Below, piece by piece: positions 11,418 to 29,579 of a stretch of DNA of 64,000 nt (position 1 is the first letter of the stretch; each line of letters opens with the position of its first letter). Under the pieces are notes generated by a model. That model searched no databases, was not told the origin of the DNA, and saw only the letters and a program-made list of their open reading frames with translations. Source of the stretch: Candidatus Marinacidobacterium sp. (GTDB taxonomy: Bacteria; Acidobacteriota; Vicinamibacteria; Marinacidobacterales; Marinacidobacteraceae); the NCBI GenBank assembly GCA_965204755.1, contig OZ242011.1, forward strand, positions 3,712,001-3,776,000. The letters are read 5' to 3'. The position numbers were made by a program, and so were the translations under genes.

Positions 11418-13031
11418 ATGGCGCGTCGCCGCGAGAAGCCGAACGGCCGGGAGAAGGGACGCCCGGCAGAGGGGCAGGGCGCGACCACCGGTTACGAGGC
11501 GGAACTGTGGAAAATGGCGGACGCGCTGCGCGGCTCGATGGATGCCGCGGAGTACAAGCATGTCGTCCTCGGTCTTCTCTTCCTGAAGTACATCTCCGAC
11601 GCCTTCGAGGAGCGGCGGGCGGAAGTCCTTCGGCAGGAGGGAGAAGAAGCGGCCGAGGAGCGCGACGAATACCTCGGAGACCACATCTTCTGGGCGCCGG
11701 AGGAGGCCCGCTGGAAGGGAATCCGGGAGGCGGCGAAGCAGCCGGCGATCGGTGAGCGGGTGGACGCCGCCATGGCCGCCCTCGAACAGGAGAACTCGGA
11801 CCTTCGCGGTGTCCTGCCCAAGATCTACGCCCGCCCGGGGCTCGACCAGGCGCGCCTCGGCCAGTTGATCGACCGGATCAGCGGCATCACCGTGGGGGAC
11901 GCGGAAGCGCGGGCGAAGGATGTGCTCGGCCGCGTGTACGAGTATTTTCTCTCGCAATTCGCCGGCGCGGAAGGCAAGAAGGGCGGGGAGTTCTACACGC
12001 CGCGCTGCGTCGTTCGCCTGCTGGTGGAGATGCTGCGACCCTTCCGCGGAAGGGTGTACGACCCCTGCTGCGGCTCCGCGGGAATGTTCGTCCAGTCCGC
12101 CCGGTTCATCGAGGCGCATGCCACCGGGAACGGCGCCGCCCGGCGGAAGAAGGCTCGCGCGCTGTCGCTCTGGGGCCAGGAGTCCAACCACACGACTTGG
12201 CGGCTGGCGAAGATGAACCTCGCGATTCGGGGCCTCGACGCGGAACAGATCGCCATCGGCGACAGTTTCCACGAGAACCGCTTTCCGGACCTGAAAGCGG
12301 ACTTCATCCTGGCGAACCCGCCGTTCAATGTGTCCAACTGGGGCGGCGAGCGCCTCACGGACGACGCCCGCTGGACCTACGGGACCCCGCCTCGCGGCAA
12401 CGCGAACTACGCTTGGGTGCAACACATCGTGCACCATCTCGCGCCCGGCGGGGTGGCGGGCTTCGTCCTGGCCAACGGCTCCATGTCCTCGACCCGCGCG
12501 AACGAGGGTGATATCCGCCGGGGCCTCGTCGAAGCCGACTTGGTGGACTGCATGGTCGCGCTGCCCGGCCAGTTGTTCTACTCGACCCAGATCCCGGCGT
12601 GTCTGTGGTTCCTTGCCCGGGACCGCTCCGGGAAGCGGAAGTCGAGCGGGCGCGACAGGCGCGGAGCGATCCTCTTCCTCGATGCCCGGAAACTCGGCCG
12701 GATGGTGGACCGGACCCACCGCGAGTTGACGCCGGAGGACATCGGGCGGCTCACCGAGACCTATCAGGCTTGGCGCAGCGGAGAAGGGGGCTACGAGGAT
12801 GTCCCCGGGTTCTGCTGCGCGGTTCCGCTCGCGGAAGTGCGCCGCCACGAACATGTCCTGACCCCGGGACGCTATGTGGGCGTCGAGCCGATCCCGGAGG
12901 ACGACGAGCCGTTCGAGGAGAAGATGCGCCGCTTGACGGCGGAGTGGCGCGCGCAGCGGGAGGAGGGCGCCCGCCTCGACGCGCAGATCGAGCGGAACCT
13001 GAAGTCGCTCGGGTTCTGGGAACCCTCGTGA
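11418..13031 (+). CDS. hsdM: Type I restriction-modification methyltransferase subunit M
   Basis: [19 protein letters not shown]-binding [11 protein letters not shown], catalytic [14 protein letters not shown]. Confidence 0.95.
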
Positions 13032-14800
13032 ACTTCGACGCCGGGGAGATCGCCCGGCAGTTGCGCCTCGGCGAGGACAGCGACTGGGAATTCAAGGAGA
13101 TCGTGTTTCGCGGCGACCGCCCGGTAGGGCCGCGGCGGAACGATCTCGCCGACGAGATCGCGGCCTTCGCGAACGCGAGCGGCGGGGTCCTGCTGTGCGG
13201 CGTCCGGGACAGCGGGGAGGTCGTCGGCATGTCGCGTCCGCGGTTGGACGAAGTGGATCGACTGCTCGTAGAAGTGAGCACCGATGCGATAGACCCTCCG
13301 GTGCGTATCCGCGTGCTTCGGCGGGAAATCGAGGGCAAGGCGATCCTCATGGTCGAGATCCCGCCCGGCGATGCCCAGCACGACAGCCCGGGAGGGAGTT
13401 TCGTGCGCGTCGGCGCCTCGAAGCGGCACATGAAGGCTGACGAGCGCTTGCGGCTCGCGCAGAGACGCAGCCAGGCGAGGTACCGCTGGTACGACGAACA
13501 GGCCGTGCCGCAGACCGGATTCGGAACGCTCGACGCCGACCTGTGGAAGCCGTTGCTCACGGAGGAGGGCGCCGCCGCGCCCAAGTCCGGAGTGGCCAAG
13601 TTGGGACTCCTCACACCGGACGAAAAGGGGGGCCTCCGCGCATCCGTGGCCGGGATCCTCGTCGCCTGCCGAGAGCCGGAGCGGTATCTGCCGAACGCCT
13701 GCATCACCGCGACCCGCTACCGGGGCGTCGACCGCGCCTCGGGCCAAGCCGACGCCCGGACAATCACCGGCCCGCTCGATCGACAGATCGCCGAAGCGGT
13801 CTCCTTCGTAGTCCGCAACATGACGGTGGCGGCGGAGAAGGTCCCGGCCCGCGCGGAAATGCCGGAGTACCGCGCCGAAGCGATCTTCGAGGCGGTCGTC
13901 AACGCCGTTGCCCACCGCGACTACGGAATGCGGGGCAGCCGCATCCGGATATCCATGTTTTCCGATCGTCTGGAGATCCAGTCTCCGGGCGGTCCGCCGA
14001 ACGACCTCGAAGTGGCCGATCTGCCGCACCGGCAAGCGACCCGCAACGAGTTGCTGACCTCCCTCCTCGGGCGGATGTCGGCGGCCGGTGTCCACGGAGG
14101 GGGCGGGCGGCTATATTTCATCGAGAGACGCGGTGATGGCGTGCCGATCATTCGAAGGACCACCGAGGAACTCACCGGACGACTGCCGGAGTTTCGACTC
14201 GTCGGCGGAGCGGAACTCTGCGTGGTCATTCCGGCGGCGCCGCTCCGGGCGAGCGCCGGCGAGGCCGTGATCCGGGCGCGCCGGGAAGGGGTACCGGTTT
14301 CGGGCATCGAACTCTTCCTCATCCTCCCGGACGGAACGACGCGCCGCGCCGCTACGGGCGCCGACGGCGAGGCGCGTCTCTCGTTGCATCTGCGCGATGT
14401 GCCGGTCACCGTCTTCGCCGCCGGCGAGGGCTCCGCAGCCCGACTGGAGCGCGGTTGGCGGCCACTCGGCGGTCCGCTCGACCTGGCGATCCGGGAGATT
14501 CCGAACGGGGGATCCGTCGTCTTGGAAGAAGACGGAGGCGTTGTCCCGGGACTGTCCGGTCACCTGACCCTGAGCCGCGACGCCCGCGGACGCCTGCGGG
14601 CCTACGGGGCGCATCTCTCCATCGAGGAAGGGCGCCCGCAGCCGGTGAGTTTCCTGCCCGGGGAGGAGTTGCGGCTGACCGATGCCGAGGGGCGCGAGCG
14701 GATGGTCCGAATCCTGACGGTAAACGGTCCCGTGTCGCTCGTGGAATACCGCGATGTCGCCGAGCAACCGATTGCCGCCGATGAGAGGACCGCCGGATGA
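13028..14800 (+). CDS. Schlafen/AlbA_2 domain + HATPase_c_4-like domain + uncharacterised C-terminal beta-rich domain
   Basis: GTGA overlap with hsdM; GEDSDWEFK...[18 protein letters not shown] (AlbA_2); [12 protein letters not shown]...[10 protein letters not shown]...RN...ERRGDG (HATPase_c_4); about 170-aa strand-rich tail in place of the usual winged HTH. Confidence 0.85.
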
Positions 14801-15042
14801 CCGTTGCCGACCTTGTCTCCCTTCTCGCCAAGTACGACGGCGATCTGCGTGTCGTCGTGGACGGCTACGAGAATGGCTACGACGACATCGTACCCGAACG
14901 AATTCAGCGAATGAGACTCTGCCTCGATGTCGGCACCAGGGACTATGAGGGAAAGCATGACGAGCCGGGCTTCGCCGACGAACGCCGACGCCGTGAAAGT
15001 GTCGTAGTCGAGGCGATCTGTCTTCACCGCAGTTCGTTCTGA
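14797..15042 (+). CDS. Small hypothetical protein (81 aa)
   Basis: ATGA overlap with upstream stop and TGATG overlap with hsdS; [30 protein letters not shown]. Confidence 0.7.
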   Translation: MTVADLVSLLAKYDGDLRVVVDGYENGYDDIVPERIQRMRLCLDVGTRDYEGKHDEPGFADERRRRESVVVEAICLHRSSF

Positions 15043-16298
15043 TGCAGTCCCATCGGCTCGCCATGTCGCCTATTGCGCCTCCACGAGTTCGTCTGAGCGA
15101 GGTAGGCGCCGTTCTGATGGGGCAGTCCCCACCGGGGACGACCTACAACGACCAGAAACAGGGGCTCCCGTTCTTCCAAGGAACGAGGGACTTCGGTTAC
15201 CGCCACCCGACGCCGAGGGTCCACTGCGAAGAGGTCAGGCGGGTAGCCGAGCCGGGGGATCTCCTGTTCAGCGTTCGAGCGCCGATCGGCCGCATCAATG
15301 TTGCCGATCGTCGGTGCGGTATCGGGCGAGGGTTGGCGGCGGTACGGGCGAGGCACGCGAGTGACGCGCGATACCTCGAGTACGGGCTTCGCGCGCTCCA
15401 CCGTTCGTGGGATACGCTGGAGGGCAATGGTTCGGTCTTCGGCAACGCGACTCGACGCGACTTGGAAGAGACTCTGATCCCATGGCCTTCGGCTCAGCGT
15501 CGACGTTCGATTTCGGATGCATTGGGCACTCTGGACGACAAGATTGAATCGAACTGGTGGATGAGCGAGACTCTCGACCAGATGGCGCGGGCGATCTTCG
15601 AGGACTGGTTCGTGAAGTTCGGTCCGACTCGGGCGAAGATGGAGGGGCGTCGGAGGTACCTATCCGAGTGCGTGTGGTCTTTGTTTCCGTCGCGACTTGT
15701 ACAGTCCGAGGTGGGCAGGATTCCCTCGGGGTGGTCCGTTCGTCCGTTCGACGCAGTGGCGGACTATCGCAACGGATTGGCCTTGCAGCGCTTTCGGCCG
15801 GTGGGGGATGAGCCTTCGCTCCCAGTAGTCAAGATCGCCCAGTTGAGATCGGGTGCTGCCGATGGAAAAGAGTCGGCGTCGGCCCGGATCGCGCCGGAGT
15901 GCGTCCTCGACGACGGAGATGTCGTTTTCTCGTGGTCAGGAAGCCTTCTGGTGAAGTTGTGGTGCGGTGGTCGTGCCGCGCTGAATCAGCACCTGTTCAA
16001 GGTGACATCACGCCGCTTTCCTCGTTGGTTCTACTACCACCATCTCCTGGAACGCCTTCCGGCGTTCCAGCGGATTGCGAGTTCGAAGGTGACGACGATG
16101 GGGCACATTCGTCGTCGCCATCTCGGGGAAGAGATGTGCGCGGTGCCGGATGACCGCTTGCTGGAAGCAGCGGGAGGGGTGATGGAAGCGTTGGTGCGAG
16201 CGCAGATCGAGAATTCCGTGTCCATGCGGAAACTGGCTGCGCTGAGAGATCGCATGGTGCCCAAACTCCTGTCGGGCGAGTTGCAGGCGCGGGGATAG
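15042..16298 (+). CDS. hsdS: Type I restriction-modification specificity subunit S
   Basis: TRD1 (MGQSPP..YN...GLPFFQG...SVRAPIG), conserved spacer LDDKIE..ETLDQMARAIFEDWFV, TRD2 (NGLALQRF...ALNQHLFKV), C-terminal LRDRMVPKLLSGEL. Alternative start 15063. Confidence 0.93.
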   Translation: MQSHRLAMSPIAPPRVRLSEVGAVLMGQSPPGTTYNDQKQGLPFFQGTRDFGYRHPTPRVHCEEVRRVAEPGDLLFSVRAPIGRINVADRRCGIGRGLAAVRARHASDARYLEYGLRALHRSWDTLEGNGSVFGNATRRDLEETLIPWPSAQRRRSISDALGTLDDKIESNWWMSETLDQMARAIFEDWFVKFGPTRAKMEGRRRYLSECVWSLFPSRLVQSEVGRIPSGWSVRPFDAVADYRNGLALQRFRPVGDEPSLPVVKIAQLRSGAADGKESASARIAPECVLDDGDVVFSWSGSLLVKLWCGGRAALNQHLFKVTSRRFPRWFYYHHLLERLPAFQRIASSKVTTMGHIRRRHLGEEMCAVPDDRLLEAAGGVMEALVRAQIENSVSMRKLAALRDRMVPKLLSGELQARG

Positions 16299-16385
16299 AC
16301 TTTTGGACGCTGTCATGACGACCGCACGCGAACCGCGGACGCGAACGCGGTCGGCGCCCCGGGAACGCGCGAGAGCGGGCACGGG

Positions 16386-17465
16386 ATGCTGAAGCAACTG
16401 ACGGTTCGGGGTTTCAGGTCCATTCGGGCCTTGGAGAACTTCGAACTGGGCTCGTTGAATGTCCTGATCGGGGCGAACGGGGCCGGGAAGAGCAATCTGG
16501 TCGCCCTGTTTTCCCTGCTCGGGGCGATGGCGCGGGAGAATCTCGAGTTGTTCACGGCGCGACAGGGCGGGCCGGACGGGCTGCTCTTCGGCGGTCGGGA
16601 GGCGACGCCGCGCCTGGAGGTGGGATTGGAGTTCGGAGGAGGGGGTGGGTATCAGGTCGCATTGGAACCGGAGGGGGCGCGGTTGCTCGTCGTTCGGGAG
16701 GGGCTCACCACGCGGGCCGGGGCAGGTGGTGTGCGCGTTCGGGAACTTGGGGGCGGCGGGGCGGAGGCTCGTCTGACGACGGCGGAAGTGTCGGATGCGG
16801 ATGACTTGGCGTCCGAGATGCGGGACTGGCAGGTGTACCACTTCTGTGACACCGGTCGGCGCGCGGCGGTTCGCGGGGACCAGGCGGTACGCGACAACCT
16901 GCGTCTTCGGCCGGACGGAGGAAACTTGGCGGCCTATCTGAGGCGGCTGTCAGAGGCGCATCCTCAGGACCACCTCGAGATCGTTCGCGCCGTACGGGTC
17001 GTGGCGCCGTTCTTCGCGCGATTCGTCTCGCGGAACGGTACCGGGGAACAGATGGAGTTGGAGTGGATCGAGAAGGGCGAACCGGAGGTCGTGCGCGGCC
17101 CCGGCCAGATGTCGGACGGAACCCTTCGGTTCGTGTGTCTGATGGCCCTGCTGCTGCAGCCGACGGACCTGCAGCCGCGGACGATCTTCATTGACGAACC
17201 GGAACTCGGAATGCACCCGTACGCCTTGGGCGTCCTGAGCGACGTGCTTCGGGATGTGAGTCGGCGGCGGCAACTCATCGTGGCGACGCAGTGTCCGGAC
17301 CTGGTCAGCGGGCTGGAGACCGAGGAGGTGGTGGTCGTGAATCGAAAAGGAGCGGAGTCGTCGTTCGAGCGGCCGGACGCGGAGCGACTGCGGCGCTGGC
17401 GAGAGGACTTCCGTCTCGGAGACCTGTGGAAGATGAATGTGATCGGGGGGCGGCCGGCGTGGTGA
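16386..17465 (+). CDS. ABC-type AAA (AAA_21-like) ATPase
   Basis: [13 protein letters not shown], Walker [10 protein letters not shown], signature MSDGTLRF, Walker [18 protein letters not shown]. Confidence 0.9.
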
Positions 17466-18142
17466 CGGCTCTGGTCGTATGCGAAGGACAGACGGAGGAG
17501 ACTTTCGTCGGTCAGGTGCTCGCGTCGTTCGTGGCCCCGCGGGGAATCCGGGTGAGCGCGAGGTTGTTGGAGACCTCGCCGGGGTACGCCGGAGGAGGAC
17601 TCGGGCGAGCGATCGTCTTGGGCACGCTCTGCGATGCGCTCCGGGAGCGGGAAGACCTGTATCTGGCGACGCTGTTCGATCTCTTCGGTCTGCCCAAGCG
17701 CTTTCCCGGGCTTTCAGAGGCAAGCCGGGAGGACGATCCGCTCGAACGGGCGCGCCGGGTCGAGGAAGGTCTGCACCGCCGGGTCGTCGCGGAGAGCGGG
17801 TGCGCCCCGGAACGGTTCTTCCCGCATGTGCAGCCGTACGAGTTCGAGTCGCTCCTGTTCGCCGATGCCGGGAAGTTCGCAGAAGTCAATCCGGCTTGGG
17901 CGGACGGAGCGGAGTCGCTCCAGAATGTGGCGGCCGCCGCGGCGACACCGGAGCACATCAACGATGGAGAGGGCACGCAACCGTCGAAGCGGCTTGCAAT
18001 GCTCCACCGATACAGGAAGACCTTGCATGGCGTGGAGGTGGCGGCCCGGATCGGTGTGGAGCGGATACGGCAGGAGTGTCGGCACTTCGATGGCTGGGTG
18101 TCGCGGCTGGAGGCCCTGTCGCCGCTCGAGGGAAACGGCTGA
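17462..18142 (+). CDS. DUF4276 family (TOPRIM-like) protein
   Basis: GTGA overlap with the ATPase; [49 protein letters not shown]. Confidence 0.85.
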
Positions 18143-21100
18143 TGCCTTTCTTCACGGAGTCGCTCGTCGAGGAGGCGGCGCTCGACTGGTTCCGGAAACT
18201 CGACTACCTCGTGGATGGCGGGCCGGAGCGCCCTCCCGGGGAGGTCGGGAGCCGGCGGAACTACTCGGAGGTCGTGCATTGGGCGAGCCTGCAGGGGGCG
18301 CTTCGCCGGTTGAACCAGCACTTGCCGGAGGACACCCTGTTGGAGGCGGCGCGGCGGGTGCAGAACCCGGAGGGTGCGACGCTCGACGCTCGGAACCGGA
18401 ACTTCCACAGGATGTTGGTCGAAGGCGTGCCGGTCGAGTATCGGGATGAGAGCGGGGATCTGCTCGGCGCCCGGGTTCGGGTCGTGGATTTCGACCGGCC
18501 GGGGGAGAACTTCTTCAAGGCGGTGAGCCAGTTCACGGTCGAGGAGGGCGGCCGGCGGCGGAGACCGGACCTCGTGATCCTCCTGAACGGGCTTCCCGTG
18601 GGCATCCTGGAGTTGAAGAGCCCGTCGGACCCGGACGCCACGGTGTGGTCGGCCTGGAACCAGATCCAGACCTACCGGAAGGAACTGCCGACGCTGTTCT
18701 CGTTCAACGAGGTCGTGGCGGTTTCGGACGGGATGGAAGCCCGGCTGGGGGCGTTCTCGTCCCCGCGGGAGTGGTTCAAGCCATGGCGCACGATCGGCGG
18801 GGAAGAACTGGCCCCGGTGTTCCTTACCGGTCTGCAGGTGCTGGTCGAGGGCGTGTTCCAGAAGCGGAGATTCCTCGACCTGTTGCGCGGGTTCGTCGTC
18901 TTCGAGGACGACGGCTACGGCGCGCCGGAGAAGAAGATCGCCGGGTACCACCAGTTCCACGCCGTGAAGAAGGCGGTGAAGGAGACGCTGCGGGCGGCGG
19001 CGAGGGAGGCGGACCGGGTGGAGGAGCCGCTCCTCGAGTACGAGACGCGGGAACTCTTCGGCGGGAAGCCGGGAGATCGGCGCATCGGCGTCCTCTGGCA
19101 TACGCAGGGATCGGGGAAGAGCCTGACGATGGCCTTCTTCGTCGGGGAAATCGTCCGGGAACCGGAGATGAAGAACCCGACCGTCGTGGTGATGACCGAC
19201 CGGAACGATCTCGACGACCAACTCTTCGCGACCTTCTCCCGTTGCGGCGACCTGCTGCGGCAGACACCGGTGAAAGCGAGGGACCGGGAGGACTTGCGGC
19301 GCCGGCTTTCGGTCGAATCCGGCGGAGTGGTGTTCACCACCGTCCAGAAGTTCTTCCCCGACGGGAAGGGGGAGCGCCACCCGGTGCTCTCGGTCCGAGG
19401 GAACATCGTGGTCATCGCCGACGAGGCCCACCGGAGCCAGTACGACTTCGTGGACGGCTTCGCCGCGCACATCCGCGACGCGCTTCCGAATGCGTCCTTC
19501 GTCGGGTTCACCGGGACGCCGATCGAGACGCGGGACGCGAACACCCGCGCGGTGTTCGGCGACTACATCAGCATCTACGACATCGGCCGCTCCGTCGAGG
19601 ACGGGGCGACGGTCCCGATCTACTACGAGAGCCGGCTCGCCGAACTCGCGCTCGATGAGGCGGAGCGTCCGAACATCGACATCGAGTTCGAGGAAGTCAC
19701 CGAGGGCGAAGAGTCGGCGCGGAAGGAGAAGATCAAGAACAAGTGGGCGCAACTCGAAGCGCTGGTGGGGGCGGACGCCCGGCTCGACCGGGTGGCCGCC
19801 GACCTCGTGGAGCACTTCGAGCAGCGGGTCGAGGCGATGGAGGGCAAGGCGATGGTCGTCACGATGTCCCGCCGCATCGCGGTCGAGATGTACCGTCGGC
19901 TGACCAGTCTTCGCCCGGACTGGCATTCGGACGAGGACGACCGGGGCGCGCTCAAGGTCGTGATGACCGGGAGCGCCTCGGATCCGGTGGACTGGCAGCG
20001 GCACATCGGGACGAAGGCGCGGCGGGAGAGGCTGGCGCGCCGCTTCCGGGACCCCGAAGACCCGCTGCGGATGGTCATCGTGCGCGACATGTGGCTCACC
20101 GGGTTCGACGCGCCGAGCCTCCACACGATGTATGTGGACAAACCGATGCGGGGGCACGGTCTGATGCAGGCGATCGCCCGGGTCAACCGGGTGTTCCGCG
20201 ACAAGCCGGGCGGGTTGGTGGTGGACTACCTCGGTGTCGCGCACGAACTCAAGCGGGCGCTTCGGACCTACACGGATCAGGGGGAGGAACGGAAGGCGGC
20301 CTTCGACCAAGCGGAAGCGATCGCGCTGATGCGGGAGAAATACGAGGTCTGCTGCGGCCTGTTCCACGGCCTCGACCGCTCTCGTTGGCTGGACGGGACG
20401 CCGGAGGAGCGGCTCGGTCTGTTGTTGCTCGCCCAGGAACACATCCTCGCTCAACGGGACGGCAAGGAGCGGCTCGCTGCCGCGGTCGCGGACCTGACGC
20501 GGGCCTTCGCGCTCTCTGTCCCCAGCCGGGAAGCGCTCGACATCCGCGACGAAGTGGCGTTCTTCCAAGCCGTGAACGCGGCGCTTTCGAAACGGGCCGC
20601 CGCCGAGCGGCGGCCGGAGGACGAACTCGCCCATGCCGTGCGACAGATCGTCTCCAAGGCGGTCGTTTCCAAGGGAATCACGGACATCTTCGCCGCCGCC
20701 GGGCTGGATCAGCCCGATGTCTCGGTGCTGTCGGAGGAGTTCCTGGCGGAAGTGCGGGGTCTTCCCCAGAAGAACCTCGCGGTGGAGTTGCTGCAGAAAC
20801 TCCTGCGGGGGGAAGTCCGCGCGCGGGGCAAGAAGAATGTGATTCAGGCGCGGGCTTTCTCGGAGATGCTGGAGCGCACGCTGCTGAAGTACCGGAACCG
20901 CGCGGTCGAGGCCGCGCAGGTAATCGAGGAACTCATCGCCATCGCCCGCGAAATGCGCGAGGCGCGCGGCCGCGGCGAGAAACTGGGACTCTCCGAGGAG
21001 GAGATGGCCTTCTACGACGCTCTCGAAACCAACGACAGCGCTGTGAAGGTGCTCGGGGACGAGGCGCTGCGGGGTATCGCCCGGGAGTTGGTCGAGACCG

Positions 21101-21291
21101 TGAGGAACAGCGTCACCGTGGACTGGACGCTACGGGAGAGCGCGCGAGCGAACATCCGGCGGTTGGTGAAGCGGGTGCTTCGGAAGCACGGATACCCGCC
21201 GGACAAGCAGGAAAAAGCCACCCGGACGGTTCTCGACCAAGCGGAAGCGATCTCCGCGGATTGGCCGGAGACTGCCTCGAGCGCGGTCTGA
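18142..21291 (+). CDS. hsdR: Type I restriction endonuclease subunit R
   Basis: TGATG overlap; nuclease [19 protein letters not shown], Walker [33 protein letters not shown]-terminal YPPDKQEKA. Confidence 0.96.
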
Positions 21292-21322: not shown

Positions 21323-23278
21323 CTACGGACTGGGCGGTTCGACCAGCGCCGGGGCTGGGGCGCGACGCGAGCGCCAGGCGATGATGGCGAACAGGAGGAG
21401 GCCCAAGAGGTTGGCTACGGCGAAGAGTGACCCGCTGTCCGGCGGCCAGAGGAGAAGGGCGGCGGCGAGGAGCGACAGGGCGCGGAGGGCCGGGCCGAGA
21501 GGGCCGAAGCAGAAGCCGGTGATCCCGACGGAGAGGGCCGCGACGACGGCGAGGCCGAGGACGACGGCGGCGGCCGCGCCCGGCAGGCCGCGGCCTTCTT
21601 CGAGGAGGAGCAGCAGTTCCGGGCGGTACACGAAGAAGTAGGGGAGCGCGAATCCGGCGAGCGCGAAGCGGAAGGCGGTGGTCGCCGCCGGGAGGATCGG
21701 CGTGCCGGCGATTCCCGCGGTGGTGTAGGCGGCGAGGGCGACCGGCGGGGTCACCATGGACATCATCCCGAAGTAGAAGATGAAGAAGTGGACGGAGAGG
21801 GGGGGGACGCCGAGCCGGCCGATCACCGGGCCGATCAGGGTCACCATGAGCAGGTAACAAACGGCGGAGGGCAGCCCCATGCCGAGGACGACCGAGCCGA
21901 CCATGATGAGCAGCAGGGCGGGGAGCAGGGAGCCGTCGGCAACCGACAGGATCGCCGCCGGGAAGCGGGTGCCCACCCCGGTGAGCGTCACCATGCCGAG
22001 GATCACCCCCACCGCGGCGGCGGCGGCCACGAGCGGCGCGGCGCCGCGGGCGATCCGGTCGAGGGCGGCGGCGAGCGAACGGAGGCGGGGTCGGGTGTCC
22101 GGGTGGAAGAGCGAAGCGACGACCACCACGGCGAGGGCGATGCTCACGGCGCGGAACACCGTTCGTCCGGCGAGGAGCGCGCCGAGCAGCGAAGCGAACC
22201 CGGCGCCGAACACCAGAGCGGCCGGCAACGGGGGCCGGTCGTCGTCGGCGCTCCCGGCGGACGGCGCCGGCGGCGCCGCGAGCGGGCGCCGGCGGACGCT
22301 GAGGTGCACGGTGAGGAGGAGCGCCGCGTAGTAGAGGATCGCCGGGAGCACCGCGGCCCGGATCACTTCCAGGTAGCGGACCGGCGGGTCCACCAGTTCC
22401 AGCATCATGTAGGCGCCGGCGCCCATCACCGGGGGCACGAGCGCGGCGCCGGAACTGGCGGCGGCGGTGATTCCGGCGGCGAGGCGGGCGCTGAAGCCGG
22501 TGCTCCGCATCATCGGGATGGTGAAGGAGCCGGTCGTCGCGGCGTCGGCCACCGCGCTCCCGGAGAGCGAGCCCATCAGAGCGTTGGCGAAGACGCTGAC
22601 CTTCGCCGCCCCGCCGACGGTGCCCCGGAACAGGCGGCGCGAGGAGGCGGTGATGAAGCGGATCGCGCCGGTCTCCTGCAGCACCGCGCCGAAGACCACG
22701 AACAGGAACACATAGGCGAACATCACCCGCAGGGCGATGCCGAAGACGCCCTGCGTGTGGAGGAAGCCCTGGGAGGCGATCCGCGAGAGCGGGTAGCCCC
22801 GGTGCGGGAACAGGAAGTCCGGGAGCGAGGGGCCGAGCGACGCGTGGAGGACGAAGAGGCCGGTGAGGATGGGGAGCGCCGGGCCGAGGGCCCGCCACGC
22901 GGCGATCAGGACCCCGAGCAGGCCGAGTAGGCCGAAGACGATGTCGGCGTCGGTCTCGCCGCCGGCGCGGTCGCCGAGCGTGCTCTCGGCGAAACCGCTC
23001 CACCAGAGGACCCAGGCGCAGCCGGCGGCGGCGGAGGCCAAGCCGACGCCGTCCACCACCCGTCTCCAAAGGGGGCCGCCGGGCGACGCGCGCCGGGCGA
23101 GGAAACTGAGCGGCAGCCCCAAGAGGCCGAACACGGCGAGGCCGGTCTGGGGCGAGAACGCCGGCCGGTTCACCTCGAACAGGACGAACCCGGTGAGCAG
23201 CAGGGTGAGCATCCGCGCGGCGGCCGCGGCGGCGCCCGCGCGCCGGGGGGCGCTCTCAGCGCCCGCTTCGCCGGTCAT
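21323..23278 (-). CDS. TRAP transporter fused (4TM/12TM) permease, TAXI type
   Basis: Highly hydrophobic; GGAAKVSV, GSLSGSAVA, TGSFTIPMM, PPVMGAGA, LGMGLP, VTPPVALAAY. Confidence 0.92.
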   Translation of the reverse strand: MTGEAGAESAPRRAGAAAAAARMLTLLLTGFVLFEVNRPAFSPQTGLAVFGLLGLPLSFLARRASPGGPLWRRVVDGVGLASAAAGCAWVLWWSGFAESTLGDRAGGETDADIVFGLLGLLGVLIAAWRALGPALPILTGLFVLHASLGPSLPDFLFPHRGYPLSRIASQGFLHTQGVFGIALRVMFAYVFLFVVFGAVLQETGAIRFITASSRRLFRGTVGGAAKVSVFANALMGSLSGSAVADAATTGSFTIPMMRSTGFSARLAAGITAAASSGAALVPPVMGAGAYMMLELVDPPVRYLEVIRAAVLPAILYYAALLLTVHLSVRRRPLAAPPAPSAGSADDDRPPLPAALVFGAGFASLLGALLAGRTVFRAVSIALAVVVVASLFHPDTRPRLRSLAAALDRIARGAAPLVAAAAAVGVILGMVTLTGVGTRFPAAILSVADGSLLPALLLIMVGSVVLGMGLPSAVCYLLMVTLIGPVIGRLGVPPLSVHFFIFYFGMMSMVTPPVALAAYTTAGIAGTPILPAATTAFRFALAGFALPYFFVYRPELLLLLEEGRGLPGAAAAVVLGLAVVAALSVGITGFCFGPLGPALRALSLLAAALLLWPPDSGSLFAVANLLGLLLFAIIAWRSRRAPAPALVEPPSP

Positions 23279-23341
23279 CGGCCGGGCGCCGGCCGGCTCG
23301 GTTGCCCGGCTCGGCGGGCGTCTCCCCGGAGGGAGCGGGGC

Positions 23342-24349
23342 TCAGGGATCGGGCCAGAGACCGGCTTCGGCGTAGAAGCGGATCGCTCCCGGGTGGAAGG
23401 GGACGCCGGTGTCGCGGACGGCGTTCCGCTCGTTGATCGCGCGGCCCGCCGGGTGCTTTTCGACCACTTCCGCGCGGCGCTCCCAGAGCGCCCGGGTCAC
23501 CCGGTAGATCAGGTCCGGGTCGGCTCCTTCCCGGGTGATGAGGTGCATGGAGCCCACATCGAGCCCGGCGAACTCCTCGTCCTGCCCCCGGTAGGTTCCG
23601 GCGGGGACCGCCGCTTCCCGGTAGAAGGGGTACCGGGCGATCAGGTCGGCCCGCGCTTCCGGATCGAAAGGAACGAGGGCGGTGTCCATCCCGGCGGTGG
23701 CCTGCACGATGGACGCGGTGGGGACCGCGCCGCCGAGGAAGGCGGCGGCCGCCGAGCCGTCGGTCAGCATGTCCACCGCGCCGCTCTGCGTGTTGTAGAG
23801 CGGGACGAAGTCCTCGTAGGTCACCCCGTGGGCCTCCACGATGGGGCGGATGAAGTGCTCGAAGCCGGCGCCGGCGACCCCGACGACGACCCGCTTCCCG
23901 CCCAGGTCGGCGATCCCGGCCACTTCGTGGCGGCGGGGCGAGACGAAGAGCGCCACATTCGGCGCGAGCGTCATGACCGCCCGGATCGGGTACGGCTGCC
24001 CCCAGCCGTCCTCGCCGCGCGAGGCGAAGTAGGAGACGGCCGCGTTCGAGAGCGCGAGGTCGAGTTCTTCGGCGGCCAGCCGGCGGATGTTCTCGCCGGA
24101 GCCCTTGGTGGCCTCGGCGGTGACCTGGAGGCCCTCGGCGCTCAGGACTTCCGCGAGCGCGCCGCCGACCACGAAGAAGGCCCCGCCGGGCGGTGCGGCG
24201 CCGAGGCTCAGGAACCGCTCCCGCTCCCCGCCGGACTCCCCGCCGCAGCCGGCGAGGACCGCAGCCAGAAGGAGCGGTCCGACAGCTCCGGGGGCGGGGA
24301 ACCGGCCCTTCGGGGCCGCCGGCCGCAGGGCCTCGGATGGCGTTGGCAC
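23342..24349 (-). CDS. TAXI family TRAP solute-binding lipoprotein
   Basis: LAGC lipobox; GAAPPGGAFF, EATKGSGENI, DLGGKRV, VPFHPGAIRFY. Confidence 0.92.
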   Translation of the reverse strand: MPTPSEALRPAAPKGRFPAPGAVGPLLLAAVLAGCGGESGGERERFLSLGAAPPGGAFFVVGGALAEVLSAEGLQVTAEATKGSGENIRRLAAEELDLALSNAAVSYFASRGEDGWGQPYPIRAVMTLAPNVALFVSPRRHEVAGIADLGGKRVVVGVAGAGFEHFIRPIVEAHGVTYEDFVPLYNTQSGAVDMLTDGSAAAAFLGGAVPTASIVQATAGMDTALVPFDPEARADLIARYPFYREAAVPAGTYRGQDEEFAGLDVGSMHLITREGADPDLIYRVTRALWERRAEVVEKHPAGRAINERNAVRDTGVPFHPGAIRFYAEAGLWPDP

Positions 24350-24414: not shown

Positions 24415-25839
24415 TCAGACCGGTGGAAGTTCGTCGTGCCAGGCCGTTCGGGACTGGTAGGCGTGGGCCAGCGAAAGGAGCCGCGCCTCGGCGAACGGGG
24501 GGCCGTAGAACTGCATCGCCAGCGGGCGTCGGGGCGCCTCGGCGCTGAACCCGCAGGGCAGGGTGAGCGCCGGCAGGCCGGTCATGTTCCCGAGGAAGGT
24601 CGTTCCCGGCCGGGTGTCCAACTCGTCCGGGTCAGCGCCGGGAGGCACATCGCTCCGCGCTTCCGCTTCCGAGCGCAGCGGGTCGGCGGGAGCGAAGGCT
24701 CCCGGTACGACCATGACCTCGCAGTCTTCGAAGACCCGCGCCATCTCCTCCCGGAGGATGGAGCGCAGGCGCAGCGCCTTCAGGTAGTCGGCGGCGGAGT
24801 AGAACCGCGCCGCCTCCAGCCGCTCGCGGACGAGGGGATCGAGGGCTTCGGGCTGCTCGGCGAGTCGTTTCTCGTGGAAGGCCGCCGCTTCGGCCATGGC
24901 CACGATCCAGCCGGCGTTCCCGGCGAGGTGTCCGTGGGGGATATCGACTTCGACGACTTCCGCGCCTTCGGCCCCGAAGAGCGCGACCGCCGCCGCCACG
25001 GCGTCGGCGACTTCGGGCGCTGCTTCGCCCGCGAAACCTGACGAAGGGATGCCGAGCCGCAGCCCGCGGACTTCCGGGTCCAAGGCCGCCGAGTAGTCGG
25101 GGACCGGACGGGGAGAGGTGGTCGGGTCCTTCGGGTCCGGGCCGGCGATCACGCCCAGCATCGCCGCCGCGTCGCGGGCGGTGCGGGTCATCGGGCCGGC
25201 GTGGTCGAGCGTCCAACTCAGCGTGGTGACCCCGAAGCGGCTGACCCGGCCGTAGGTCTGCTTGAGGCCGATGACGCCGCAGGCGGCGGCCGGGCCGCGG
25301 ATGGAGCCGCCGGTGTCGGTGCCGATGGAGAGCGGGACCAGCCGGGCGGCGAGCGCGGCGCCCGAGCCGGAGGACGAGCCGGACGGGGTGTAGTCGGTCG
25401 CCCACGGGTTCCTCGCCGGGCCGAAGCCGGAGAGGACGCCGCTTCCCATCGCGAACTCGAGCAGGTTGAGTTTGCCGATCAGGATCGCCCCGGCCCCGTT
25501 CAGCCTCTCGGTGATGGTGGACTCGAAGTCGGGGACCCGGTCCGCGGTGGCGCGGGAGCCGTTCGTGGTCAGGATGCCGCGGGTGGCGAGGATGTCCTTC
25601 GGGGCGTAGGGAACCCCGTGGAGGGGCCCGCGGCTGCGGCCGGCGGCGATCTCCCGCTCCGCTTCCCGCGCCCGCTCCCGGGCGTGGTCGGCGGTCACCG
25701 TGATGAAGGAGTTCAGCGCCGGGTCCGCGGACTCGATGTGGGCCAGGTGGGCCTCGACCACCTCCACCGGAGAGAGGTCGCCGCGGCGGTAGCGCTCGGA
25801 GAGGGCGAGCGCGTCGAGACGGCAGAGTTCGGGGATCAC
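24415..25839 (-). CDS. Amidase signature family protein (AtzE/GatA-like amidase), no signal peptide
   Basis: GTG 25839 overlapping upstream stop; GPLHGVPYAPKD (Lys), GSSSGSGAA, GTDTGGSIR (Ser-cisSer-Lys triad). Confidence 0.9.
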   Translation of the reverse strand: MIPELCRLDALALSERYRRGDLSPVEVVEAHLAHIESADPALNSFITVTADHARERAREAEREIAAGRSRGPLHGVPYAPKDILATRGILTTNGSRATADRVPDFESTITERLNGAGAILIGKLNLLEFAMGSGVLSGFGPARNPWATDYTPSGSSSGSGAALAARLVPLSIGTDTGGSIRGPAAACGVIGLKQTYGRVSRFGVTTLSWTLDHAGPMTRTARDAAAMLGVIAGPDPKDPTTSPRPVPDYSAALDPEVRGLRLGIPSSGFAGEAAPEVADAVAAAVALFGAEGAEVVEVDIPHGHLAGNAGWIVAMAEAAAFHEKRLAEQPEALDPLVRERLEAARFYSAADYLKALRLRSILREEMARVFEDCEVMVVPGAFAPADPLRSEAEARSDVPPGADPDELDTRPGTTFLGNMTGLPALTLPCGFSAEAPRRPLAMQFYGPPFAEARLLSLAHAYQSRTAWHDELPPV

Positions 25840-26225
25840 GCCGGTCCGCCCTCGCCGCTCCCGCCGCCGGCGGGGGCCTCGGCGGAGAAACGGATCGCCG
25901 GCTCGATCCGGTCCTCGATGTCCAGGGCCCGGACCGCGCGGAAGAAGGCGTGGTTCATCCGGACCGCGGGGAGCAGGGCGGGGAGGCGATCCGGGGCGGT
26001 CGGCCGCGCCGAACGCGCGTTCGCCTGTTCGAGGGCGGTGAGCGTCGGCGGCGCGCCCGGCGCCGGCGCGCTGCCGCAACCGGGAAGGAAGGCGGCGACG
26101 GGCGCTGCGGCGGCGCCGCCGAGGATCGTCCGCCGGGTCAGCGAATTCGACGGGCGAAGCGTCGCCGGCTCCGGCCGGCGGGCCGTCCCGGACCCGGGGG
26201 AGGGCTCCGGGGTAACAGGCGGCAT
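25836..26225 (-). CDS. Small Tat-signal lipoprotein with AtzG/GatC-like C-terminus
   Basis: AGGAGG upstream; TRRTILGG twin-arginine motif, hydrophobic stretch, FLPGC lipobox; ends LPAVRMN..FRAVRALDIEDRIEPAIRF; GTGA overlap with the amidase. Confidence 0.7.
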   Translation of the reverse strand: MPPVTPEPSPGSGTARRPEPATLRPSNSLTRRTILGGAAAAPVAAFLPGCGSAPAPGAPPTLTALEQANARSARPTAPDRLPALLPAVRMNHAFFRAVRALDIEDRIEPAIRFSAEAPAGGGSGEGGPA

Positions 26226-26485
26226 GGGGGTTCCTCCTATCGGGTGGCGCCGCGGGAGCGGAAGACCCCGTCGGGCAGGGGCGATCCTCGGCGGCGGGTC
26301 GGAGGGCGGATCGTAGTCGTCGCCCCCGGGGCGGCGCCGGAGCGGAGCGCCGCGCGGGAAGACGGGAGGCGGCGGGCCGGCGGGGCCGCTCCCCGGCGGG
26401 TATCCTTCGGGGCGGCGGCGCTCGTCGCCGCGCGGCGGCCCCGGCCCCCGCGGCCGATCGAACCCGCCCGGCCCCTTTCCCCGGA

Positions 26486-27982
26486 ATGTTCCCCGTCCGC
26501 GAGACCCTCGGAGAACCGGCCCGGCGCCGGGCGCTCCGGCTCCTCGGCCGCTTCGCCGCCGGCGCGGTCGGCGGCCTGCTCGCCGGGAGACCCGTCATCG
26601 GCCGCGCGGCGGTCTTTTCCGACGCCGCCGTCGAGGACCTGGGTCGGCGGCTGCATGCGCTCCGGCGGCGGTTCGGCCTCCGCCGCGCCATCGGGATCCA
26701 GGTGACGGACCTCGAGACCGGGGCGGCGCTCTTCGGCCACAACCCGGATCGGGCCTTCGTGCCGGCGTCCGGCATGAAACTGCCGGTGATGGCCGCTTGC
26801 CTCCACTACCTGGGGCCGAGTTACCGCTTCCCCACCGAGTTCTTCCTGGACACCCCCCCGAAGGACGGGGTCGCGGACGGGCCGCTCCGGGTGGTGGGCT
26901 CGGGCGATCCCTCGCTCATCCGCCACGACCTGGACTTCGTGACCGACTCGCTCCGGGCGGCGGGGCTCCGCGAGATCCGGGGCGACTTCATCCTGGACGA
27001 CTGGTTTTTCGAGCCCCAGGAGACCGACCCGGAGTTGGTGCAGCGCCGCCGGCGCCGCCGGCTCCCCATCCAGAGCGCGCTCGGTTACCACTGGAACCGG
27101 CTGGAACTGGCCGGGGCGCCCGGCGACGGCCAGCGCCCGGACATCCGGGACGAGGGGTACGGCTACTACGAGATCCAGAACCGGATGGTGCTCCGCAACT
27201 CCGGTCGGCCCTACATCCTGGCCCGGCGGCAGCGGGGGCGGCGGATCCGGCTCGAAGGGCGCGTGCTGCGCGGCGGAGGGGAACGGGTGGCCCGGCTGGC
27301 GGTCCCCGAGCCGGCGATCTATTTCGGCCATGCGCTCCGCGGAAAACTGCGCGAACGCGGCATCTCGGCCCCGGGCGAAGTGCGCCGGCGCCGCCGGGGC
27401 GAGTCCTCCGGGCGGGTGCTGCTCTACCGGCACCGGTCCGCGCCGCTCACCCAGGTCGTGGAGGCGCTCGGGAAATACAGCAACAACTGGGCGGCGGAAC
27501 AACTGCTGTTCGCGGTCGGCGCCCACCGCTGGGGCCCCCCGGGCACGCTCGACAAGGGGCGCCGGGCGATCGAGGAGTACCTGGTGGGACTCGGGTTCGC
27601 CGCCTCCTCGTTCGAGATCGCCGACGGCTCCGGCCTCTCCCGGGACAACCGGTTGAGCGCGCGGATACTGGTCGAAGTCGTCCGCGACCTCTACGGCCAG
27701 CCGGAACTGAGGGAGGACTTCCTGTGCTCGCTGGCGGTCTCCGGCGTGGACGGCACTCTGGCGCGCCGGATGTACGGGGAAACCGCGGTGGGCCGGGTGG
27801 TCGCCAAGACCGGGAGCCTCGCGGCGGTGAGTTCCCTCTCCGGGGTGGCGTTCCCGCCGGGCCGGGGGCGCGCCCTCGGGTTTTCGGTGATCACGAACGG
27901 GATCGGGAACCAGTGGAGCGGGGACGCGGTGGAAAACCGCGTCGCCGGGGAACTGCTCCGCTGGGGCGAGACCGCCGACTGA
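26486..27982 (+). CDS. dacB: D-alanyl-D-alanine carboxypeptidase/endopeptidase (peptidase S13, PBP4)
   Basis: PASGMK (SxxK), GSGDPSL, YSNN (SxN), DGSGLSRDN, AKTGSL; RRRALRLL Tat-like N-terminus. Confidence 0.92.
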   Translation: MFPVRETLGEPARRRALRLLGRFAAGAVGGLLAGRPVIGRAAVFSDAAVEDLGRRLHALRRRFGLRRAIGIQVTDLETGAALFGHNPDRAFVPASGMKLPVMAACLHYLGPSYRFPTEFFLDTPPKDGVADGPLRVVGSGDPSLIRHDLDFVTDSLRAAGLREIRGDFILDDWFFEPQETDPELVQRRRRRRLPIQSALGYHWNRLELAGAPGDGQRPDIRDEGYGYYEIQNRMVLRNSGRPYILARRQRGRRIRLEGRVLRGGGERVARLAVPEPAIYFGHALRGKLRERGISAPGEVRRRRRGESSGRVLLYRHRSAPLTQVVEALGKYSNNWAAEQLLFAVGAHRWGPPGTLDKGRRAIEEYLVGLGFAASSFEIADGSGLSRDNRLSARILVEVVRDLYGQPELREDFLCSLAVSGVDGTLARRMYGETAVGRVVAKTGSLAAVSSLSGVAFPPGRGRALGFSVITNGIGNQWSGDAVENRVAGELLRWGETAD

Positions 27983-28031: not shown

Positions 28032-29093
28032 GTGAGGCCGATCCCGGGGCTCGATCCGCCGGAATATGTGACTTGGGCGCCCGACCCGCAGGTCGTCCGC
28101 GAATTCGGGGACCGGGCGTTCGCGGACGACCGCCTGGCGGCCATCCTCGGGGGGACCGACGAGGACCGGCGGCTGGGGTTCTACGAGGGGCTCGCGCGCA
28201 ACCGGCTCCACGACCTGCAGTTGAAGCGCTGGGTGCGCTCCGGCGCGCTCTCGAAGGCCTGGCTCGGCCCCGGGGAAGAGGCCGTCACCGTCGGCGCCTG
28301 CCGCGCGCTCGGCGAGGGCGATGCGGTCGGGCCGATGATCCGCAACGCCGGCGCGGCCCACGAGCGGGGAATGCCGCTCTCCGCGCTCTTCCGGGGCGCG
28401 CTCGGGGCCCGGGACGGCCCGGCGGGGGGCCGCGACCTCCACTTCGGGGATCCCGAGCGCGGCGTGGTGGCGCCGATCAGCATGGTCGGGTCGCTGGTCC
28501 CGGTGATCTCCGGGATGGCGCTCGCCTTTCGGCTCCGGGGCGAGTCGAGGATCGGTCTCACCTGGGTGGGGGACGGGAGCGTGGCGACCGCCGGGTTCCA
28601 CGAGGGGATGGCGGCGGCCGCGGCGCTCCGGGCGCCGGTCGTGGTCGTGATCCAGAACAACCGGATCGCCTTGGGAACGCCGCTGCCCGGGGACGGGGTC
28701 GAGCGGCTCCGGGCCTCCGGCGGGCCCTACGGCGTCCCGCTCCTGGAAGTGGACGGCAACAATGTGCTCGAGGTGTTCGCCGCCGTCGCTCTCGCCCGGC
28801 GGACGGCGCTCGCGGAGTCCCGGCCCGTTCTGGTGCTGGCGCACACCTTCCGCATGGGCGGACATGCGACCCACGACGAGGGGCTGAGCCGGCGGCTCCT
28901 CCCGCCGGAACACTTCGAGTACTACGGCCGCCGCGATCCGGTGCGGGCGTACCGCGCGTTCCTCGCCTCGGGGTGGGATCGCGCCGACGTCTCCTGGCCG
29001 GCGGTCCCGGAGGACCGGCTCGCGGGGATCGAACGCCGCGTCGAGGCCGAAGTCGAAGCGGCGCAGGCGGAGGCGCTCGCCTCGGTCGGGTAA
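28032..29093 (+). CDS. TPP-dependent 2-oxoacid dehydrogenase E1 alpha-like subunit
   Basis: GEEAV, GRDLHFG, TPP motif GDGS...FHEG...QNN, VDGNNV, FRMGGHATHD. Confidence 0.85.
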   Translation: MRPIPGLDPPEYVTWAPDPQVVREFGDRAFADDRLAAILGGTDEDRRLGFYEGLARNRLHDLQLKRWVRSGALSKAWLGPGEEAVTVGACRALGEGDAVGPMIRNAGAAHERGMPLSALFRGALGARDGPAGGRDLHFGDPERGVVAPISMVGSLVPVISGMALAFRLRGESRIGLTWVGDGSVATAGFHEGMAAAAALRAPVVVVIQNNRIALGTPLPGDGVERLRASGGPYGVPLLEVDGNNVLEVFAAVALARRTALAESRPVLVLAHTFRMGGHATHDEGLSRRLLPPEHFEYYGRRDPVRAYRAFLASGWDRADVSWPAVPEDRLAGIERRVEAEVEAAQAEALASVG

Positions 29094-29144: not shown

Positions 29145-29579
29145 TCAGTCCGGGGACTTCTTCGGGCGGCGCTCCACCGGGAAGTGGTTCAGGCCGAGGC
29201 GTGCGGCGGAACGGTCGGTCTGGTCCACGATGGCGGCGGCGTTGATGCCGATGGCGATCACGATCGCCTCGCTGATCTCCTCGCGGGTCGCCCCGGCCTT
29301 GATCGCCTTCTTGATGTGGCCGTCCAGGCACCCCTCACACTGGGCGACCAGCGAACAGGCGAGCGCGATGAGTTCCTGGGTCCGGGCGTCGAGGTGGGCG
29401 TTCTCCGAGAAATAGGTCTCCTTGTAGAACTGGCCGTAGATCGCCTTCATCCGCGGCTCCAGCATCGAGTACGACGCCGGGGGGCGGGCCTGCTTCCCGG
29501 CGCCGCCGACTTCGTCCGGTTCGTAATCGATGCCCGGGATGCGCGCCTCCGCCGGGGAGGGCGCCGTCTTCTTCGCCAT
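29145..29579 (-). CDS. Carboxymuconolactone decarboxylase/AhpD-like protein
   Basis: LDARTQELIALA..CEGCLDGH..A.KAGATREEISEA (CxxCxxxH). Confidence 0.88.
   Translation of the reverse strand: MAKKTAPSPAEARIPGIDYEPDEVGGAGKQARPPASYSMLEPRMKAIYGQFYKETYFSENAHLDARTQELIALACSLVAQCEGCLDGHIKKAIKAGATREEISEAIVIAIGINAAAIVDQTDRSAARLGLNHFPVERRPKKSPD

Follow-up and report, generated by a model that had tools for sequence, protein, structure and literature searches.

The locus examined here raises the question of how an amidase that carries no signal peptide is routed in the cell when the gene overlapping it encodes a small protein with a twin-arginine (Tat) lipoprotein signal. The following features were located in the window, which is the whole stretch of 64,000 nucleotides that was analysed.

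24415..25839, minus strand: amidase gene P0001, encoding an amidase-signature enzyme of 474 residues without signal peptide
25836..26225, minus strand: small subunit gene P0002, encoding 129 residues with a putative Tat lipoprotein signal, a linker, an AtzG/GatC-like core and a Gly-rich tail
25836..25839, minus strand: GTGA stop/start overlap, supported by the sequence, the spacing across the loci of the family and contigs of three studies
25887..26051, minus strand: AtzG/GatC-like core, P0002 residues 59-113, with two helices, a short helix and an extended EP..F tail
26076..26087, minus strand: putative lipobox LPGC, P0002 residues 47-50, with Cys50, supported by conservation of the Cys and by Lgt and LspA in the genome
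26121..26138, minus strand: twin-arginine motif TRRTIL, P0002 residues 30-35, with the RR kept in 20 of 20 loci of the family
26233..26238, minus strand: Shine-Dalgarno-like AGGAGG, 7 nt ahead of the ATG of P0002, read from the sequence

The TRRTIL motif, the LPGC lipobox and the GTGA overlap with the amidase, all of which an earlier note on this DNA had described, were found in place on the minus strand, but the end of P0002, which had been read as ...IEPAIRF, needs correction, as a Gly/Ala tail of 16 residues comes after it. Between TRRTIL and LPGC lies an uncharged stretch rich in Ala, Gly and Pro, and the GC3 of P0002 in its frame is 0.90. The TGA stop of P0002 shares GTGA with the GTG start of P0001, an overlap from which we infer that translation of the two genes would be coupled.

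A Pfam scan matched P0001 to PF01425 from residue 26 with 359.7 bits (cut-off 27). Lys81, Ser155 and Ser179, assigned as the triad of the family, were invariant in 27 aligned orthologues. For none of the 25 NCBIfam amidase families listed, among them GatA and AtzE, did P0001 reach the cut-off. Its assignment to GatA (TIGR00132) was rejected at 309.2 against 481.1, with the GatA rows forming a separate branch (SH-aLRT 100), and so was that to AtzE, at 284.9 against 425.75 (TIGR02715) and 302 against 461 (NF006631). The source genome (G000; one contig, 89% complete) encodes a gatC-gatA-like pair and gatB elsewhere; AtzH (PF11533) was not found in this genome, nor was an atzH homologue found beside the P0002–P0001 pair. 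The named relatives of P0001 belong to Acidobacteriota, the closest named record (81%) being from Candidatus Marinacidobacterium sp. and the others from Vicinamibacteria, Bryobacterales and Solibacteraceae. A small amide, used as a nitrogen or carbon source, is a plain guess for the substrate of this Lys-Ser-Ser amidase.

A TAXI-type TRAP transporter (binding protein and fused permease; window 21323-24349, minus strand) is encoded 66 bp downstream of the amidase. Deducing the substrate from this neighbour was considered and rejected, as the synteny is weak, the intervening genes are variable and the arrangement hardly occurs outside the family: TAXI-TRAP, PBP4 and E1-alpha were all covered by the DNA retrieved for 17 of the 20 relatives, with unrelated genes of varying length between them, and outside the family TAXI-TRAP was near the amidase only in L126. 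Around 92 distant loci, no functional type of neighbour was seen to recur, the largest clusters comprising 7 loci. The window also contains a PBP4-type D-Ala-D-Ala peptidase (26486-27982, plus strand), the N-terminus of which reads like a twin-arginine signal (ARRRALRLL), and an E1-alpha-like gene of a 2-oxo-acid dehydrogenase with no beta gene next to it (28032-29093, plus strand), which is faced by a CMD/AhpD-like gene (29145-29579, minus strand), both being kept in the family block. The segment at 12599-21291 (plus strand) was read by eye from the list of open reading frames and is presumably a type I restriction-modification region (HsdS-like and HsdR-like) that also contains an AlbA-like gene and an inserted pair of ATPase genes. 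Elsewhere in the genome, ARAGORN reported a tRNA-SeC at 2037018 and a starred tmRNA at G000:C1:1121214-1121971, the star of which we take to mark a permuted gene.

To describe the small protein, we compared its sequence, its modelled fold and its predicted complex with those of known amidase partners. P0002 itself had no match to PF13318 (AtzG-like) at E ≤ 0.1, and its likeness to AtzG therefore rests on its relatives and its fold. PF13318 matched at E ≤ 0.05 in 12 of the 74 proteins scanned, with 2 Tat-bearing homologues over the cut-off, and the sole match in 151 class genomes was to a Tat-bearing homologue at 23.1 bits (cut-off 24); the PF13318-matching homologue lies upstream of, and overlaps, an orthologous amidase. 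The core of P0002 was modelled with a pLDDT of 92.9, and of 48,161 chains compared with it by fold, AtzG (6c62_C) came closest, at the weak values of Z 5.4 and rmsd 6.1 over 63 aligned. Ranks 1-4 were AtzG and three GatC chains, rank 5 was the N-terminus of the Rhodococcus amidase 3A1K, and rank 6 was again of the AtzG/GatC type, the values for ranks 1-4 and 6 being weak throughout (Z 4.2-5.4, rmsd 6-8). Such evidence as the fold comparison may give lies in the uniform kind of the six best rows, and not in the Z values. A Foldseek search with the small core returned nothing at E ≤ 0.001, a PDB sequence search with the profile of the small protein gave none better than E 0.025 and matches only in the signal-peptide region, and the ESM Atlas gave only unnamed clusters (0.89-0.92). 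By hhalign, the core aligned with GatC (58.9%, E 9e-5) with a score of 28, compared with a maximum of 17 for shuffled sequences.

The predicted complex of P0002 and P0001 had a score of 0.82, compared with 0.00 for the best of three controls, and the mark set for this score was attained by 116 of 157 solved pairs but by only 2 of 215 pairs that were mismatched. The prediction runs agreed in at least 94% of contacts, with a partner pLDDT of at least 75. Because AtzE-AtzG and GatCA have been solved and may be remembered by the predictor, the score may show likeness rather than binding. The predicted contacts with the amidase are made mainly via P0002 residues 86-99, which are near-invariant and form its most conserved stretch. 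Conservation on the amidase side was set aside as evidence for binding, as the interface columns barely exceed the other columns in conservation (0.80 vs 0.74). P0002 appears to be a structural subunit of the AtzG/GatC type and an obligatory partner of the amidase. The likeness to AtzG and GatC that had been proposed from the sequence is supported by the top fold matches, weak as they are, and by the PF13318 matches of relatives, and the pairing by the complex model, subject to the same caution about solved pairs.

Export signals were called by a home-made rule (RR-x-x-hydrophobic and an uncharged run of at least 11), which approximates, and is not, SignalP or TatP. By this rule, a Tat-like signal was present in 60 of 62 distinct small partners (duplicates removed), compared with 8 of 310 control frames in the same DNA and none of the 120 best amidase homologues. 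The first conserved amidase motif was at residue 70-77 in every one of these 120 homologues, indicating that they have no N-terminal extension. In 57 of the 60 Tat-like partners, the RR was 21-33 residues ahead of the core. A profile search with the mature part gave 75 cluster representatives, 46 of them with an RR motif in front; among the remaining ones, many appeared by eye to be truncated or mis-started and about five were signal-less. A signal hidden ahead of the amidase was considered, since its frame is open for 322 codons upstream in the source genome, and was rejected because this open frame is not conserved and the homologues lack an extension. The earlier claim that the amidase carries no signal, and the expectation that a Tat motif is conserved on the small partner only, as judged by the above rule, both hold. 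The Pfam TAT_signal score of P0002 was 16.7 bits, below the cut-off of 22.7, and the h-regions of some relatives were short and modestly hydrophobic. TatC and two TatA/B genes are encoded in the source genome, and so are Lgt and LspA for lipoprotein processing.

The lipobox Cys was invariant in the family (25 of 25 proteins and 20 of 20 loci). The family lipobox is mostly LAGC, and the LPGC of P0002, with Pro at -2, is atypical; we infer from the conserved Cys that P0002 would be lipidated at Cys50. Among the 68 metagenome pairs, a lipobox was clear by eye in 1 and detected by pattern in 5, and most other partners have, by eye, a Tat signal with an Ala-x-Ala-like end, from which the complex would be released and not tethered. 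The lipobox-bearing family forms one nested branch (SH-aLRT 100), and the lipid anchor seems to be confined mainly to it and not to extend over the whole clade. The membrane anchoring suggested by the earlier note would apply to the P0002 family, but in most relatives it gives way to an Ala-x-Ala-like site.

The gene arrangement was examined in relatives and in metagenomes. The small gene was present in 21 of the 24 other genomes of the family, and all 20 family loci examined had two separate open reading frames, with the RR and the lipobox Cys in the small one. The spacing between the small gene and the amidase in these loci was -4 (nine loci), +4 (eight) and +1, +2 and +3 (one each), so that all three frames occur, and an in-frame stop was 1-23 codons ahead of the amidase start in 11 of the 20. 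The junction was crossed without indel by contigs of runs X3, X7 and X10, which come from three studies; X3 is possibly the source, and a further run, X12, has no cover at the junction. A frameshifted single gene, against which the earlier note had warned, was excluded by these loci, frames and contigs. Run X7, labelled sponge metagenome, contains the whole stretch; 24 of its 29 differing letters over 2.1 kb lie within a 225-bp patch of the amidase (window 24535-24759), which includes a variable loop that the prediction puts in contact with the small subunit and is possibly a recombined patch. In the three genomes of the family where the small gene is missing (G006, G010 and G015; 93-95% complete), the orthologous amidase is missing too, their best matches being at E 1e-73 to 1e-77, compared with 1e-237 or better; a broader profile found fused amidases in G006 and G010. 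L128, which came up in the family small-gene search, was discarded as a chance match and contains no amidase. Metagenome loci were chosen by the amidase motif alone (114 matches, of which 80 were fetched and 10 were too short upstream), and the small gene was directly upstream in 68 of the 70 informative loci, absent from 2 and fused in 0 of 68, counts that are not independent because the loci are mutually related. Four orthologous amidases (L031, L032, L187 and L213) had no small gene beside them; the genome of L032 contains a stand-alone Tat-core gene with no amidase adjacent (L280), and no such gene was found in the genome of L031.

The same small domain was also found in a single chain with an amidase. 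The source genome encodes a fused paralogue of 611 residues, P0028 (G000:C1:2662370-2660535; L021:5536-7371, minus strand), in the order Tat signal, lipobox-like LTAC, small domain, linker and amidase. Relatives of P0028 occur in 59 of 151 phylum genomes, a tally that takes in the unpublished genome G175, and among 30 fused relatives inspected by script and eye, 22 had an RR signal, 5 had no RR but a hydrophobic N-terminus, and 3 were unclear or cut. The P0002 core aligned end to end with the small domain of P0028 by hhalign (97.9%, E 4e-13), with a score of 64 compared with a shuffled maximum of 16; judged by this alignment, the core is homologous to the N-terminal domain of the fused Tat-amidases. 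The earlier note had counted fusion in relatives, together with a frameshift error in the reads, against the proposed export. Fused relatives do exist, in another amidase clade, but since the same small domain sits in them between Tat signal and amidase, they support rather than refute the proposal.

A small Tat-bearing core gene was located downstream of a signal-less amidase in nine loci (L281-L285 and L287-L290), of which L284 looks frameshifted; they come from five genomes that belong to a different family within the order. With the small gene downstream, the signal can act only in trans, as neither fusion nor recoding can attach it to the amidase. A lipobox-like Cys was present in some of these reversed-order partners and absent in others. 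Other amidases are preceded by signal-less, cytoplasmic-type small partners that have no such N-terminal extension. In L293, two fused Tat-amidases are followed by a split pair of a small Tat gene and an amidase that looks broken. A further amidase of the source genome (G000:C1:3644493-3645812) has, by eye, a fused signal-less small domain at its N-terminus, and in its relatives L295-L297 this domain is apparently a separate gene. The trees were unrooted quick searches with no bootstrap; 18 rows (long branches and thinning) were dropped from one tree and L232 was left out of the other, and the two place the fused clade differently in drawing only. In the former tree, all Tat-bearing types were on one side of a branch with SH-aLRT 97, with the reversed pairs beside the fused clade, a topology that fits an old two-gene exported form.

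Taken together, we consider it likely, with a probability of roughly 0.75, that P0002 and P0001 form a heterodimer that is co-exported by Tat hitch-hiking. The overlapping stop and start would couple synthesis, and the small subunit would wrap the amidase in the cytoplasm as both are made. The Tat system would then take the folded complex over the inner membrane on the twin-arginine signal of the small subunit. In the P0002 family, the complex would be lipid-tethered at the outer face of the inner membrane or beyond after processing by Lgt and LspA, and in most relatives the signal would simply be cut off. Outside the cytoplasm, the amidase would convert a small amide to an acid and either an amine or ammonia, with the scavenging of nutrients as the likeliest purpose.

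Among the alternatives, the one that survives best, although its chance is small, is that the amidase, having no signal, stays inside, with the small protein aiding its folding in the cytoplasm or acting separately and being exported alone; the four orthologues without an adjacent partner could be accommodated in this way. However, AtzG is a permanent subunit (PMC6219798), the same domain is covalently placed between Tat signal and amidase in a widespread related clade, the predicted interface takes in those residues of the small protein that are best conserved, and a core of 55 residues has no evident role alone. Slightly less probable again is that the complex forms but its N-terminal peptide is a relic, or an anchor that stays uncleaved, with the enzyme acting on the cytoplasmic side. 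The weak Pfam Tat score and the short, modestly hydrophobic h-regions of some relatives would agree with this, but the RR lying 21-33 residues ahead of the core in 57 of 60 cases, the invariant lipobox Cys of the family, the Ala-x-Ala-like end seen by eye in others and the lack of such an extension in the cytoplasmic-type partners of other amidases argue against it. It is very improbable that both subunits are outside with the amidase taking another route and assembling after export, since none of the 120 amidases had a Tat-like signal or an N-terminal extension, no conserved secretion gene is beside the pair, and coupled translation would favour assembly in the cytoplasm. Finally, that one gene was split by an assembly error, or that one protein is made via frameshift or read-through, can be dismissed despite the fused form in relatives and in the source genome itself, given the identical junction in contigs of three studies, the junctions in all three frames without any fusion among the metagenome pairs, the different clade of the fused enzymes (33% identity) and the existence of the reversed gene order.

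Beyond the co-export of this heterodimer, we tentatively offer a wider reading, to which we give somewhat less than even odds: an AtzG/GatC-type subunit may have turned into an adaptor dedicated to export and anchoring, so that one and the same amidase fold is routed to the cytoplasm, periplasm or membrane only by the N-terminus of its partner, and the two-gene hitch-hiker state may be ancestral, with the widespread single-chain Tat-amidases of Acidobacteriota derived from it by fusion. If so, there would be a class of periplasmic hydrolases invisible to signal-peptide prediction. If the co-export is true, a cofactor-free hydrolase would join the few natural Tat hitch-hikers known, and the GatC/AtzG family would gain a new job. 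Enzymes of this kind, often annotated as GatA and predicted to be cytoplasmic, may be periplasmic or membrane-bound, and their soluble expression probably needs their small gene. The natural series of partners with no signal, a cleavable Tat signal or a Tat lipoprotein signal, together with the reversed and fused forms, could serve as a compact system in which to test Tat co-export and its quality control.

Tat hitch-hiking is established for HybOC and PaoABC (135 kDa) (PMC4273604) and for MelC1/MelC2 (PMC2758597), and lipoproteins, as well as complexes with one signal, are described as exportable by Tat (PMC6085387); general background is given in PMC6708511. AtzG is described as an obligate subunit, without which AtzE is insoluble (PMC6219798). 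Hitch-hiking and AtzG/GatC-type subunits are thus each known, and no description of their combination with an amidase was found in the open-licence papers searched.

Compared with known systems, AtzG-AtzE, the 1-carboxybiuret hydrolase of Pseudomonas sp. ADP (PDB 6C62), resembles the present pair in that a small non-catalytic gene immediately precedes the gene of an amidase-signature enzyme. The small fold is apparently alike, AtzG being the top match at a weak Z of 5.4, and a complex is predicted for the present pair as well. It is unlike the pair in that P0001 misses the AtzE cut-offs, in that no AtzH was found in the source genome, and in the location of AtzG, which we take to be the cytoplasm. 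In the passages of PMC6219798 consulted, AtzG is not described as having an export signal. GatC-GatA of the GatCAB amidotransferase is distantly homologous to the pair in both partners, but P0002 is shorter than GatC (a core of about 55 vs about 95 residues) and signal-bearing, and P0001 is under the GatA cut-off and outside the GatA clade, in a genome with its own gatC-gatA and gatB elsewhere. The fused Tat-amidases of Acidobacteriota (P0028 type), of which no characterised member was found in the literature searched, combine a signal, the homologous small domain and an amidase as the pair does, but in a single chain of a different amidase clade, and the Rhodococcus N771 amidase (3A1K), fifth by fold, is like P0002 in its N-terminal helical domain. 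The MelC1/MelC2 tyrosinase of Streptomyces, HybOC and PaoABC share with the pair a signal on the small partner, none on the catalytic subunit, and neighbouring genes. These hitch-hikers are metal or cofactor enzymes, whereas the carrier here is AtzG-like, and a putative lipoprotein in the P0002 family, and the cargo P0001 is, as we assume from its family, a cofactor-free hydrolase. As is suggested here for the amidase pairs, the exported and cytoplasmic versions of MelC and MelD differ by the signal of the helper (PMC2758597).
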